NCBI GenBank assembly: GCA_001786765.1
Contig: MFTH01000003.1
Coordinates: 1 to 44,509, forward strand
Direction of reading: 5' to 3'
Origin: Candidatus Nomurabacteria bacterium RIFCSPHIGHO2_01_FULL_37_25
GTDB lineage: Bacteria > Patescibacteriota > Minisyncoccia > Phycocordibacterales > UBA9973
Length of the DNA: 44,509 bases
This document shows, in pieces, positions 2,645-9,119 of this stretch (within the stretch, counting starts at the first letter, position 1; each line of letters starts with the position of its first letter). Under the pieces are notes generated by a model. The model was not told the DNA's origin and ran no database searches. It saw nothing but the letters and a program-made list of their open reading frames with translations. Both the position numbers and the translations under genes were made by a program.

Positions 2645-2961
2645 TCAAAAGGATTTTTTGTTTTAAAGGGATTAATTTTTTCTGTTGGACTAAGATCCGG
2701 CACATTCTTTACCGGGTTTGTCTCTACCTGCACTTTAGGTGGCTGACTTAACACTTCTACTGCTTCTTCGATAGTTTTCACACTAGTATCTTTTTCTTCG
2801 ATATCTCTTCCTATAAAATACCAATAAAACCCCACAGTAATTATAATAATTGCTGTAATCACTCCGACTAAAACATTTTTATTTATACTATTTGTATTGT
2901 CCACTAGATTTAAGTATACACCTAAGTTAATTGTCAAACAATATATTGTATAGATACTCAC
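2641..2961 (-). CDS. Small single-TM hypothetical protein (true start may be GTG at 2904)
   Basis: ORF between co-oriented genes, one TM helix VLVGVITAIIIITVGFYWYF. Confidence 0.7.
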   Translation of the reverse strand: MSIYTIYCLTINLGVYLNLVDNTNSINKNVLVGVITAIIIITVGFYWYFIGRDIEEKDTSVKTIEEAVEVLSQPPKVQVETNPVKNVPDLSPTEKINPFKTKNPFE

Positions 2962-3881
2962 CCGTCAATTAAATCTAGGGTTAAACAACCAGGAATGCTG
3001 GTTGACTCTTCGTAAAGTGATTGATCGCCGACGTATTCTTCCCAGGATTTAAAAAGAGAAACAATCTTCTTTTCTGTTTCTTGCTTGATGCTCGGATCAA
3101 GATAAAGAAACGGGCAAACATGTTGCGGAGCGCTTCCTCCCTTCAAAATCCCGATTTCTACAGCGCCGAATCCAGCAGGCGCTCCTCGATCAAAATTGCT
3201 TACCTCTCCGAGAATTTGACCCGCTTTTACTTTATCACCGACTTTAACCCTAGGATTCAGTATGTGCTCTGTTTCATAAATCCATTTTTCTAATTTACCG
3301 TTGGCAGTTACTTGAATAGAATAATCACCACTCCAGAGGGTAGGCATACTAACTACTACTCCGTCTACTAAAGAATGTACCGGAGTGCCTAGAGGCAGAA
3401 TGAAAGTAGGTTGCGGGTTATATTTATCAGGGGACGCGCTACTCGAGGGTATAAAAAAACCATAAGGCATAAATAAGCGATTAAAAGATAATTTTTGTTT
3501 TGTAAAAACAAAATCGCCTGCTGTATTTGACCCCGGATCATAATAACCCAAATTTACGCCAATACTTTTGAGAAGTAATGGTGGGACATCGTTGATATTT
3601 TCCTGAACAACTAGAACTGGAGGTTGAGCTGGTGGATTATTTTTAATTGTGACAGAAGAAGTGGATTCGGGTTTTACGATTTCTAGTTTTTTGATTTTCG
3701 ATGTATTTGCAATTCTAGTTTCAGAAGCTGGCAATTGATCAGTTTTATCTAAGATTATATCTGCGTCAGGTATTCCAATAGATGGATCCTTTTTGAAGGA
3801 ATAATAGACAAGACTGAGCAATATGGTAACTGCTACTACTATGTTTACCACATAGAAATTCAAAAAACCTTTTTTATTCAT
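2958..3881 (-). CDS. Membrane-anchored M23/LytM-like fold protein lacking the zinc motifs
   Basis: GTPVHSLVDGVVV and VKVGDKVKAGQILG are M23-type segments; HxxxD and HxH not seen. Confidence 0.65.
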   Translation of the reverse strand: MNKKGFLNFYVVNIVVAVTILLSLVYYSFKKDPSIGIPDADIILDKTDQLPASETRIANTSKIKKLEIVKPESTSSVTIKNNPPAQPPVLVVQENINDVPPLLLKSIGVNLGYYDPGSNTAGDFVFTKQKLSFNRLFMPYGFFIPSSSASPDKYNPQPTFILPLGTPVHSLVDGVVVSMPTLWSGDYSIQVTANGKLEKWIYETEHILNPRVKVGDKVKAGQILGEVSNFDRGAPAGFGAVEIGILKGGSAPQHVCPFLYLDPSIKQETEKKIVSLFKSWEEYVGDQSLYEESTSIPGCLTLDLIDG

Positions 3882-4057: not shown

Positions 4058-4990
4058 TTATACCTCCCAAACTTTATCACCGGGAGCAAAATCAACCTGG
4101 TATTCTGGAATACCTAATTTAAGACCGTATTTTTTAGCATCTTTATAAAGTATAGGGTTTTTCAAATCCACTTTAAATATTTTCCCTTGATAAACTATAA
4201 AATGGTAATGTTTATTTTTAAAATCAGCATACCAATTGTGTTTTTTGTCTAAGTTTTGACTTAATTGTTCAGCAATTTTATCTGCATTTTCTTCTTTAAT
4301 TTCAACAGTATGTAAAGTCCATTGTTTTTCCCAAGGTGTTTTATGTTTTTCTTTGATAGGTTCTATATTAGTTTTTAAGATTTTTATACCTTTCAGAATA
4401 TCTTTATTTTCTAAACTTTCTTCTATTACTACACCTCTATAGTAGAACTTTTGAAACTTAACCATATCAATATTGGAAAATACTCTAGGTATTGAAGACT
4501 CTTTTATCATTCCAAGTGAAGGACTTGAACCAAATCCTATATATTCAAGACTTTTCTTTTTTGCCTTACAAACATATTTAATAGCTGGAATAAGGTCAGT
4601 GTCTGAACTTATCACAATTGCTGTATCGTATAGATTGTCTGTTGCGCCTATTACTAAATCTACTGCTAGTTTTATATCTACACCCTTCTCTCTAATATTA
4701 CCATCATCATACATTATTCTTCCGTGTTTTACTTCAAATCCTTCTGCTTTTAAGCTATTCAAAAATGTCTGCTGATTTTTTACCATCTTTTCTGCTTTTT
4801 CTGAACCATCAACATTTCTCACTATTCCTATGTAGTATCTTTTTGATACCAATACTCTTTCTCCAACTAGATGTTCTATAAAAGCAGAATAATCAATCCT
4901 TGCCAATTTTTCTGGTATTCCTAAATCTTTCAATCTTCTGTAGGTATTACCCCCATCAATATATACAGCGACCCTTTCTTTTTTATCCAT
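4058..4990 (-). CDS. NYN (LabA/DUF88, PIN-like) ribonuclease fused to an uncharacterised C-terminal domain
   Basis: VYIDGGN, EKGVDIKLAVD and SSDTDLIPA acidic motifs in aa 1-180; ~130 extra aa follow. Confidence 0.85.
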   Translation of the reverse strand: MDKKERVAVYIDGGNTYRRLKDLGIPEKLARIDYSAFIEHLVGERVLVSKRYYIGIVRNVDGSEKAEKMVKNQQTFLNSLKAEGFEVKHGRIMYDDGNIREKGVDIKLAVDLVIGATDNLYDTAIVISSDTDLIPAIKYVCKAKKKSLEYIGFGSSPSLGMIKESSIPRVFSNIDMVKFQKFYYRGVVIEESLENKDILKGIKILKTNIEPIKEKHKTPWEKQWTLHTVEIKEENADKIAEQLSQNLDKKHNWYADFKNKHYHFIVYQGKIFKVDLKNPILYKDAKKYGLKLGIPEYQVDFAPGDKVWEV

Positions 4991-5435: not shown

Positions 5436-6224
5436 CTATCGAAGTTTGTATTTACCTTGTCCAACGAAATCAAGATACTGTTTATCACGTGGGAATTGTA
5501 ATTGCTGGCGGATTTTGTCTTTAATATGTTTATTTTCCGGATGAATAACTTTTAAATCAGGTTCAAAATTATAAACATCTTGCAGATAAAATTCCTTTTT
5601 ATTCAAAGAATCAATACAATTCATAATATCCAAAATCCAACCTTTTGCATCTGCTTTCTTAACTTCTTTGAGAAAAATTGTTTTCTGCCATTTGTCTAAA
5701 ACTTGTTTTTTTGAAATTTCTTTTCCGTCTTCAATATAAAATATCTGACCTGCTTTCGGTATCTTTGAAAACAAAATATTAGAACCAACCCAACCTGCTC
5801 TGCGTGCAGTTTTTTAAAGTGGTTTCCTTTTTTCAATAATTTCAGAAATAAAAAAGTGTTTAGGCACAACAAAAAAGTCATTTACATAAAAAGACTCTAA
5901 ATAACCCACAAAGAAGAAATTGGGTTTTGTAGTAGAATTTATTCTTTCAATCATTTTTGAATAAGCTCCCGCAGGCACAGTTTTACCAATTTTTCCTTTT
6001 TTAGATTTTAACTCAAAATCTTCATTACATTTTTTGCAATAGAAATCAGCAACTGGTTTATTATTTTCATATTCATAAATTTTTACCGCTCCACAATTTG
6101 GACAATATATTTGATTTAAAACCCAATCTTCGCTTAAAACACGAATTTTTTGGGAAGCACTTATGTAGTTATCTGTAATATTTTCTGCAAAAGATACATT
6201 GATTTTTCGTTCGGCTACTACCAT
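5436..6224 (-). pseudogene. DpnI/Dam-replacing-family methyl-directed endonuclease with one in-frame TAA
   Basis: SQKIRVLSEDW, YCPNCG, NNKPVADFYC, ELKSKK, then RKPL*KTARRAGW and KDKIRQQLQ; the two track ORFs are in the same frame (stop at 5814-5816). Confidence 0.9.
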
Positions 6225-7861: not shown

Positions 7862-8476
7862 TTACCAAGGAAGTAAATACGCAGTAAATGATGTACACTC
7901 ATCTACAGTTCGTAAGTCCATACGGTATTTAGAACCAAGTACAAAATAATCTTGCGGTGTTGTTGTACTGGTAAATAAAGGACCCTGATCATGCCAATTA
8001 ACACCATCATTCGAATAGTGTAAGGCATAAGTAGCTGAAGCTTGATTACTATGAATAGAAATTCTTGAATACTCAGTTGTATCCATTATTTGAGAATATT
8101 CGCCCACCCAACCACCACATTTATTAACGAAAAGAGTTACTTTTTTAGCTTGCGGACCCAACTCTTCAAGATTTCCTGAATCACCCTTATCACCTTTTAA
8201 TCCTTGTGGACCTGTTTCTCCGATTGGACCTCGAGGACCAACATCGCCAGTATCGCCCTTGTCGCCTTTATCACCCTTTATACCAACAACATTCCAAGTT
8301 AATAATTGATCATTTTTTTTACAATCAGCTCTCCTGAAACCATCACCAATAACATAAACCAAGCCACTCTTTTTGGCACAGATAGTAATTTCATTACCAG
8401 TTGCTTGCGAATAAGACCAAATACCAAGAACCAGAGCGAGACTAAAAATTCCAACACCTATAATCTTCATTTTCAT
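7862..8476 (-). CDS. Secreted collagen-like protein
   Basis: Signal peptide plus 13 consecutive Gly-X-Y triplets (GIKGDK...GDSGNL). Confidence 0.8.
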   Translation of the reverse strand: MKMKIIGVGIFSLALVLGIWSYSQATGNEITICAKKSGLVYVIGDGFRRADCKKNDQLLTWNVVGIKGDKGDKGDTGDVGPRGPIGETGPQGLKGDKGDSGNLEELGPQAKKVTLFVNKCGGWVGEYSQIMDTTEYSRISIHSNQASATYALHYSNDGVNWHDQGPLFTSTTTPQDYFVLGSKYRMDLRTVDECTSFTAYLLPW

Positions 8477-8515
8477 ATAATATATTTCAACCTTAATCTA
8501 ATAATAAAATGGTAG

Positions 8516-8660
8516 CAAAAAGCCCACCACAGGTAGAGACCGAAGTCTCTCGCACAGGTTTCCCTGTACGGCAGATCGTGCAACCCCATGATGGGTTTTT
8601 TATTCACGATCTGACTTTTAACCATACCTTAAACTTTGAAATTCAAGGGTTAGGTCTCTA
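8516..8660 (-). ncRNA. Structured cis-regulatory/antisense RNA with c4-like architecture
   Basis: Minus strand has hairpins GTACAGG-GAAA-CCTGTGC and GAGAC-TTCG-GTCTC, closing stem CCCATCAT/GTGGTGGG plus U-tract, and nested complements TAGAGACC/GGTCTCTA and CAGATCGTG/CACGATCTG. Confidence 0.6.
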
Positions 8661-8804
8661 TTAAGTTTTATAATTTAATGCTATCACGGAACTGGCTAAA
8701 AATGAAGTTTTTTCGGTTTCAGACCTTGTAAAATCAGTAAAAAAGTGATATTATGTATATCACCTATACAAAAGAGTGATTTTGAATCAACCAATTCTAT
8801 CCTG

Positions 8805-8876
8805 CTCCGGGGGTAGGGATCGAACCTACGACCAATCGCTTAACAGGCGATCGCTCTACCACTGAGCTACCCCGGA
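8805..8876 (-). tRNA. tRNA-Asn(GTT)
   Basis: 72-nt cloverleaf TCCGGGG...CCCCGGAG; anticodon arm ATCGC-CTGTTAA-GCGAT; T-loop GGTTCGAT; full CCA not encoded. Confidence 0.97.
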
Positions 8877-9119
8877 ATATTTATTTTTTAATTTTTCTTT
8901 ACCATATCCTGATTTCCAATATTTTTCTCTGCTTCTCGCATAAGTTCTATTTGTCCCAGTTTTTTCAAAAAATATCTGAACCCAAGGACGAAAACCTTTT
9001 GTAGAAAAAACTTTTCCATTATTATGTTCCAACAATCTTTTTCCTGGGTTTTGGCTCATACCTACATAAATTCTATCGTCCTTTGTGCTTTTAATAGCAT
9101 AAACAAAAAATTCTTTCAT
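8856..9119 (-). CDS. Stand-alone GIY-YIG nuclease
   Basis: FVYAIKS...IYVGMS...RLLEHN...AR-REKYWK motifs; the last codons (SGVAQW*) lie inside the tRNA 5' end. Confidence 0.9.
   Translation of the reverse strand: MKEFFVYAIKSTKDDRIYVGMSQNPGKRLLEHNNGKVFSTKGFRPWVQIFFEKTGTNRTYARSREKYWKSGYGKEKLKNKYSGVAQW

Follow-up and report, generated by a model that had tools for sequence, protein, structure and literature searches.

A LOOT RNA copy with a conserved, putative pseudoknot-type terminator helix, probably the leader of a collagen-like protein gene in a candidate-phyla-radiation bacterium

The window, by which we mean the whole 44,509-nt stretch of DNA analysed, carries on its minus strand a standard copy of the LOOT RNA, a catalogued family without an assigned function from ultra-small bacteria of the candidate phyla radiation (CPR). 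This copy probably acts in cis as a promoter-proximal, terminator-type leader of a gene encoding a collagen-like secreted protein. Such a leader is the best-supported reading, drawing on the same-strand open reading frames (ORFs) that follow 65 of 68 copies, a set gap between RNA and gene, homology limited to a compact module, copies of an RNA strand at the start codon, and covariation of a long-range helix between two segments here called X and tail. LOOT being a known family, the result is mostly corrective: the hairpin cluster flagged in the initial annotation is not a new c4-like system. LOOT is nonetheless a widespread orphan RNA of CPR bacteria, of which, to our knowledge, hardly any are in culture and about whose gene regulation almost nothing is known. 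Its leader position before accessory, surface and defence-type genes, together with a conserved pseudoknot-type helix, probably a terminator, that is left out of the database model, turns an "sRNA of unknown function" into a hypothesis that can be tested in vitro.

Scanning the whole window against Rfam (cmscan, gathering threshold) returned two matches only, a tRNA and the LOOT RNA (RF03000), the latter covering positions 8535–8656 of the minus strand at full length (model positions 1–121 of 121) with 83.2 bits against a cut-off of 46.4 (E = 2.7e-16). The hairpin cluster folds with a z-score of −6.6 relative to 200 shuffles, and these two values together place the whole element far beyond chance. 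Rfam types the family as an sRNA gene, and the motif comes from the ZWD alignments of Weinberg and Breaker. LOOT has been shown as a metagenome-based RNA (PMC7779021) and described with about 43 bp in six helices (PMC7657543), and the main text of PMC5737381 makes no mention of it. The window's copy shares with the family the four hairpins, the CCUAA...AUGG and GAAA features and an origin in uncultured CPR bacteria from groundwater-type metagenomes, and no difference in the core was seen. The core and its hairpins are as follows:

8535–8656, minus strand: LOOT RNA core with four hairpins, from the Rfam RF03000 model match
8620–8656, minus strand: hairpin 1, whose helices 1 and 2 covary in relatives
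8605–8613, minus strand: hairpin 2, 5′ arm CAGAUCGUG (word a1 of the initial annotation), pairing with 8580–8572
8572–8580, minus strand: hairpin 2, 3′ arm CACGAUCUG (word a′ of the initial annotation), from fold and covariation
8551–8570, minus strand: hairpin 3 with a GAAA tetraloop at 8562–8559, its helix 5 paired in 96.2%
8535–8550, minus strand: hairpin 4 with a UUCG tetraloop at 8544–8541, its 3′ arm being word b′ of the initial annotation, from the Rfam model and fold

To follow the structure across the family, 69 LOOT loci were collected from the window's genome and its relatives, oriented and aligned over the core plus 28 nt, with pair counts made on 67 sequences. The whole LOOT structure, in which the X:tail helix was scored as a pseudoknot, is paired in 88.7% of cells, with double changes in 42 of 44 pairs, a level reached by none of 500 shuffles. 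All nine pairs of the hairpin-2 stem (helix 3) have changed on both sides among relatives, and the loop of hairpin 4 is most often GCAA (22 copies), GAAA (20) or UUCG (12). Compensatory changes in homologues, whose absence would have counted against the initial annotation, are present in the hairpins as well as in the closing stem. Three features outside the Rfam model come from our analysis: the X:tail helix and the U-run behind it, the placement of LOOT as a leader, and its association with mobile accessory genes. The segments involved in the long-range pairing are listed below:

8596–8604, minus strand: A-rich stretch AAUAAAAAA at the hairpin-2 tip, complementary to the U-run, where duplex prediction extends the X:tail helix into A:U pairs and the consensus across the family reads AUAAAnAAC
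8588–8595, minus strand: X strand CCCAUCAU, which supplies the 5′ side of the long-range terminator/pseudoknot helix, from covariation of helix 4
8523–8530, minus strand: tail GUGGUGGG, the 3′ strand of the X helix, lying outside the Rfam model, from duplex prediction, covariation and hold-out
8516–8522, minus strand: U-run CUUUUUG directly after the tail, the expected 3′ end of the transcript, where terminator-like sites were called
8509–8515, minus strand: CUACCAU, with which the tail (GUGGUGG) can form a weak alternative pairing, then UUUAUUAUU; together a 7-bp stem over 8530–8509 with a duplex energy of −10.2 kcal/mol

The X:tail helix (helix 4, alignment columns 86–93 with 176–183) is the best-supported helix of the LOOT element, being paired in 96.6% of cells with all eight pairs double-changed among the 67 sequences; one of its pairs, for example, occurs as CG 22, AU 18, GC 13, GU 5, UG 4 and UA 3 times, and shifting the partners by one to three columns lowers pairing to about 34–45%. 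Independently of the alignment, the hairpin-2 tip binds the tail of its own locus with a mean of −24.3 kcal/mol, against −13.5 for tails of foreign loci and −9.3 for shuffled ones. A hold-out set reproduced this result: 33 further loci from named metagenome-assembled genomes (MAGs) were fetched after the ideas had been formed, and the 24 non-redundant and new ones, all from named CPR MAGs, averaged −25.7 kcal/mol for own and −16.7 kcal/mol for foreign partners. Immediately behind the tail, 56 of the 67 copies have a U-run in one of five recurrent forms (UUUUUGU, UUUUUGC, UUUGUGU, UUUUUUG and UUUUGUG). In the window, the helix consists of 8 bp (6 G-C or G-U rich) followed by CUUUUUG, with an A-tract at 8604–8596 complementary to the U-run; it is a long-range helix, not a simple hairpin. 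The closing stem and U-tract proposed in the initial annotation are thereby confirmed as real and conserved, CCCATCAT lying at 8595–8588 and GTGGTGGG at 8530–8523, followed by CTTTTTG at 8522–8516. Because the Rfam model stops at hairpin 4 and the published description counts six helices and about 43 bp (PMC7657543), X:tail appears to lie outside the catalogued LOOT structure. Just past the U-run, a second partner for the tail at −12 kcal/mol or lower occurs in 33 of 65 loci, compared with 9% of shuffles. On the plus strand, the hairpin-2 tip and A-tract (8582–8597) form a terminator-like hairpin followed by TTTTATT, so LOOT could also stop antisense transcription.

X also takes part in a small apical hairpin at the tip of hairpin 2, where it pairs with 8586–8582 as drawn in the Rfam model. 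The two pairings have 3 nt or more in common in 66 of 67 loci (median 7), and because X is common to both, X:tail and the local hairpin are mutually exclusive. For the window, the Rfam fold has a computed energy of −50.1 kcal/mol and the same fold without the local hairpin −44.3 kcal/mol, to which X:tail would contribute a further −10.5 to −13.7 kcal/mol, a pseudoknot penalty not being included; by these calculations the two states of X are predicted to be close in energy. Across the family, X:tail averages −24.5 kcal/mol against −4.9 kcal/mol for the local hairpin, a difference large enough that termination could simply be constitutive. The arrangement resembles terminator-type riboswitches and attenuators in having a promoter-proximal structured leader, exclusive pairings on one strand and a U-run ahead of the gene. 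It differs from them in that the 5′ strand of the LOOT terminator sits inside the loop of another hairpin, creating a pseudoknot, while the genes behind LOOT are unrelated to each other and no ligand is known.

A tertiary contact may help the two distant strands to meet. Hairpin 3 carries a GAAA loop in 67 of 67 copies, and hairpin 1 contains an internal loop that in the window places CCUAAC (8654–8649) opposite UAUGG (8626–8622) and across the family reads CCUAA[A/C] in 62 of 67 copies and [C/U]AUGG in 58 of 67. This loop resembles CCUAAG/UAUGG, which we take to be the core of the 11-nt GAAA-tetraloop receptor. By analogy, hairpins 1 and 3 would dock through the GAAA loop and the receptor-like loop, and docking would compact the RNA, so that it could bring X near the tail and help a helix with a "loop" of about 65 nt to form in time. 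The M-box Mg2+ riboswitch is an example in which tertiary compaction favours the terminator. The GAAA tetraloop/receptor motif has been discussed elsewhere (PMC10243134), and LOOT likewise combines an invariant GAAA with a CCUAA/UAUGG loop, as in the tetraloop/11-nt receptor pair of the group I intron P4-P6 domain and other RNAs (PMC10243134). What sets the two apart is the sixth and seventh receptor positions, where LOOT has either C with U or A with C in place of the G.U pair.

Taken as a mechanism, these elements would work as follows. X:tail and the U-run would constitute a pseudoknot intrinsic terminator 39 nt before the start codon, with termination expected at 8516–8522. Docking of the GAAA loop in the hairpin-1 receptor would hold X near the emerging tail, read-through would be favoured when X sits in the local hairpin, and downstream expression would be set by how often the terminator forms or is read through. 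The window's copy would operate without the additional start-codon masking strand of about 30% of LOOT copies.

The initial annotation had interpreted the same segment differently, as an antisense RNA resembling c4 or CI in which termination is governed by exposed strands a′ and b′ binding the targets a1 and b1 that precede them; we regard this as highly improbable. Its four complementary words are indeed all present on the minus strand (TAGAGACC at 8660–8653, CAGATCGTG at 8613–8605, CACGATCTG at 8580–8572 and GGTCTCTA at 8541–8534), and the multi-hairpin RNA with GAAA (8562–8559) and UUCG (8544–8541) loops was found as described. The kinship with c4, however, fails: a permissive Rfam rescan of 8400–8900 found no c4-type family at E ≤ 10, in a release that includes c4-2 (PMC11701678), and membership in c4, c4-2 or c4-a1b1 was therefore rejected in favour of the full-length LOOT match. 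Between them, the supposed target a1 and antisense loop a′ make up LOOT hairpin 2, as opposite arms of a single conserved and covarying stem; b′ belongs to the UUCG-capped hairpin 4, whose 3′ arm it forms, and b1 overlaps the first bases of hairpin 1. Both a′ and b′ are thus 3′ arms, base-paired in the conserved fold rather than exposed in loops.

The b1:b′ pairing was rejected as a conserved feature by a cross-locus control, in which each leader was paired with the hairpin-4 arms of the other 67 loci. The own partner averaged −3.07 kcal/mol against −2.58 kcal/mol for foreign ones, and a median of 46% of foreign arms bound as well as the own arm; among shuffles of a 157-nt sequence with the same composition, moreover, 12% contain a perfect 8-nt inverted pair. 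Since own and foreign energies are so similar and the shuffle rate so high, b1:b′ is at chance level and peculiar to the window's copy; a1:a′ is a plain stem. Compared with the c4 RNA of P1/P7 (Rfam C4, c4-2, c4-a1b1) and the P4 CI RNA, LOOT is alike in being a small structured RNA in the leader of genes that it possibly controls, but it shares no sequence or structure homology with them, and its complementary strands are arms of helices instead of exposed loops. The window also lacks a target of the a2/b2 type at the ribosome-binding region, and a phage-immunity gene context. What favours a c4-like logic, namely a strand able to pair with the start region of the gene that follows, is found in about 30% of other LOOT copies and is absent from the window, whose start region has no such target. 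The proposal of an attenuator for the surface-protein operon consequently survives in part: position and orientation fit a terminator-type leader, while the c4 homology and the built-in targets do not stand.

The gene that follows the element and the nearest RNA gene on its other side are:

7862–8476, minus strand: ORF of 204 amino acids with a hydrophobic, signal-like N-terminus and collagen Gly-X-Y repeats (Pfam Collagen, 28.3 bits)
8804–8876, minus strand: tRNA-Asn(GTT), about 150 nt upstream of the element, from the Rfam scan and given as context only

The ATG of the collagen-like gene lies at 8476, 39 nt past the U-run, in agreement with the distance of about 40 nt originally given. Across the family, the main downstream ORF is on the same strand as LOOT in 65 of 68 loci and starts a median of 55 nt past the end of the core, while upstream ORFs are divided between the same (29) and the opposite strand (34). 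The window and locus L002, from the same genus, share homology only from about −47 to about +66 around the core, ending at the start-codon region; their flanks and cargo are unrelated, and L002 lacks the tRNA. This restriction of homology to a unit of about 240 nt indicates a module that travels and is placed directly before a gene. These observations bear on whether LOOT is, as its Rfam typing would have it, a free-standing gene for a trans-acting sRNA, transcribed from a promoter of its own and efficiently terminated, its adjacency to the collagen-like gene being incidental or a product of shared mobility. The strong terminator helix with its U-run agrees with such a gene, as do the short metatranscriptome contigs in which relatives are detectable, the presence of several copies in some genomes and a second terminator before the gene in some loci. 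We nevertheless consider it unlikely, as almost all LOOT copies point towards the gene that follows, with little variation in spacing, whereas upstream orientation is random, the conserved module homology reaches the start codon, about 30% of copies match the start region of their own adjacent gene, and the 39-nt gap in the window leaves scant space for a separate promoter. The second terminator, an ordinary hairpin followed by U residues, was observed downstream of the LOOT U-run but still ahead of the start codon in L005, L027 and L060, and is hard to square with simple read-through control.

A copy of the hairpin-2 5′ arm (at least 9 nt, exact) occurs in 20 of 68 LOOT copies, located 37–58 nt past the core and 0–7 nt before the ATG of a long ORF, compared with a cross-locus control rate of 0.6%; measured by energy, 18 of 67 copies show specificity for their own start region. 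For part of the family, this three-way match at the start codon shows that LOOT is coupled in cis to its neighbouring gene. In the window, a start-codon masking strand of this kind was sought and rejected: the longest word shared between its start region and the arm is 4 nt, and the duplex energy is −5.3 kcal/mol versus −4.7 kcal/mol. The strand is likewise missing from the window's closest relatives, L002, L025 and L030.

LOOT is distributed unevenly. The window's genome (726 kb) contains one copy, 22 of 61 relatives carry LOOT with 0–7 copies per genome, and within the class it was found in 90 of 401 genomes (22%), as opposed to 0 of 14 control genomes. Matches in named MAGs belong to Saccharibacteria, Paceibacterota, Minisyncoccia, Parcubacteria and similar groups, and the window's DNA was detected in groundwater and soil metagenomes. 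An exact-word search for the window's hairpin 2 in named genomes, a set from which the window's own genome was left out, gave no match. Four LOOT-pattern matches (L071, L072, L076 and L091) lie on contigs binned to Gammaproteobacteria, Gastranaerophilales, Methanoregula and Burkholderiaceae, which are probably mis-binned CPR or mobile-element DNA. The cargo genes behind LOOT encode an N-terminal hydrophobic segment in 39 of 68 cases, and their Pfam matches include DNA methylases (5), Mrr-type and staphylococcal nucleases, superinfection-immunity proteins, trypsin-like peptidases and collagen repeats (2); the Pfam survey revealed no common pathway among them. A collagen-like homologue stands behind LOOT in a distant genome of a different family as well (38% identity over 87 amino acids, E = 2e-18).

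No universal partner protein was found beside LOOT, only mobile-element genes in subsets of loci. A large serine recombinase (Resolvase, Recombinase and Zn_ribbon_recom domains) is encoded directly upstream, mostly divergently, in nine loci (L003, L005, L010, L022, L033, L040, L050, L051 and L063), a ParB-N/DNA-methylase fusion upstream in five others, and an HTH_Tnp_1_2 protein in four, neighbours that point to mobile elements. In one genome with seven copies, four of them (L023 and L032–L034) lie within about 46 kb (G019:C6, 159.8–205.6 kb), which suggests an accessory-gene region where each cassette has its own LOOT leader.

This context raises the alternative of a portable CPR mobile-element cassette that senses nothing, supplying a promoter, a very stable, structured 5′ end to shield the mRNA and a terminator with some leakage, which would fix a low output or insulate the cargo gene. 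The common module of about 240 nt at unrelated loci with different cargo, the diversity of the accessory genes, the recombinase and ParB-methylase neighbours and the patchy spread would all suit a cassette of this type, and beyond the tetraloop-receptor pair and the A-tract no conserved single-stranded core resembling a ligand pocket is evident. Two mutually exclusive pairings of X are kept in 66 of 67 copies, however, and about 30% carry the three-way matched start-codon strand; both are hard to explain without switching, and we judge the non-sensing cassette fairly unlikely. A broader interpretation, offered tentatively and with a fairly low probability, is that LOOT is not an sRNA gene but a CPR-wide switchable leader on mobile accessory-gene cassettes. 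It would combine a receptor-folded core, a pseudoknot terminator, a pairing of X chosen by a signal and, in a subset, a hypervariable start-codon "address" strand, the window representing a terminator-only form that gates a collagen-like surface protein. Candidate signals for such a switch would be ionic conditions, a metabolite, or a protein encoded by the host or the element.

For the cis-acting leader that we favour, transcription would begin shortly upstream of the core, where one candidate element can be placed:

8678–8686, minus strand: putative extended −10 element TGATAGCAT, proposed from family position only

It lies 27 nt before the core, the family mode for −10-like hexamers being −26, and the L002 module homology begins about 47 nt upstream of the core. 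A generic sigma-70 scan called no promoter for LOOT on the minus strand. In one peat metatranscriptome, LOOT relatives were represented by five short contigs, and along 20 kb of the window no feature was better covered than the tRNA and LOOT, LOOT accounting for four of the eight longest pieces. For the relative L067, no RNA run was found. These data are assembled contigs of relatives with possible DNA carry-over, showing presence and not transcript ends: one of the five contigs ends at 8520, recorded as immediately ahead of the U-run, while the other four extend further. Within the collagen repeats (8206–8262), a relative's metatranscriptome contig lacks 55 nt and differs in 10 other letters, which is consistent with variation in repeat length between relatives. 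Tail-fibre PHROG matches of the collagen-like protein were set aside because they were driven by the Gly-X-Y repeats only.

In the remaining neighbourhood, neither a direct repeat of the tRNA-Asn 3′ end, which would mark an integrated island, nor a recombinase was found within the window. The 3′ end of an ORF for a GIY-YIG nuclease (8856–9119, minus strand) enters the 5′ part of tRNA-Asn (8804–8876, minus strand) by about 20 nt; either its true stop or start differs, or the overlap is genuine. Farther downstream on the same strand are genes for an NYN-domain protein (4058–4990), an M23 peptidase (2958–3881) and a 532-amino-acid ORF (1046–2644) without any Pfam or PHROG match. Between these and the collagen-like gene, a DpnI-like restriction endonuclease of the Dam-replacing family (5436–6224, minus strand) is split into two adjacent ORFs, one encoding the catalytic part (5814–6224) and the other the remainder with the DpnI_C helix-turn-helix domain (5436–5774), and looks like a frameshifted or decaying gene.
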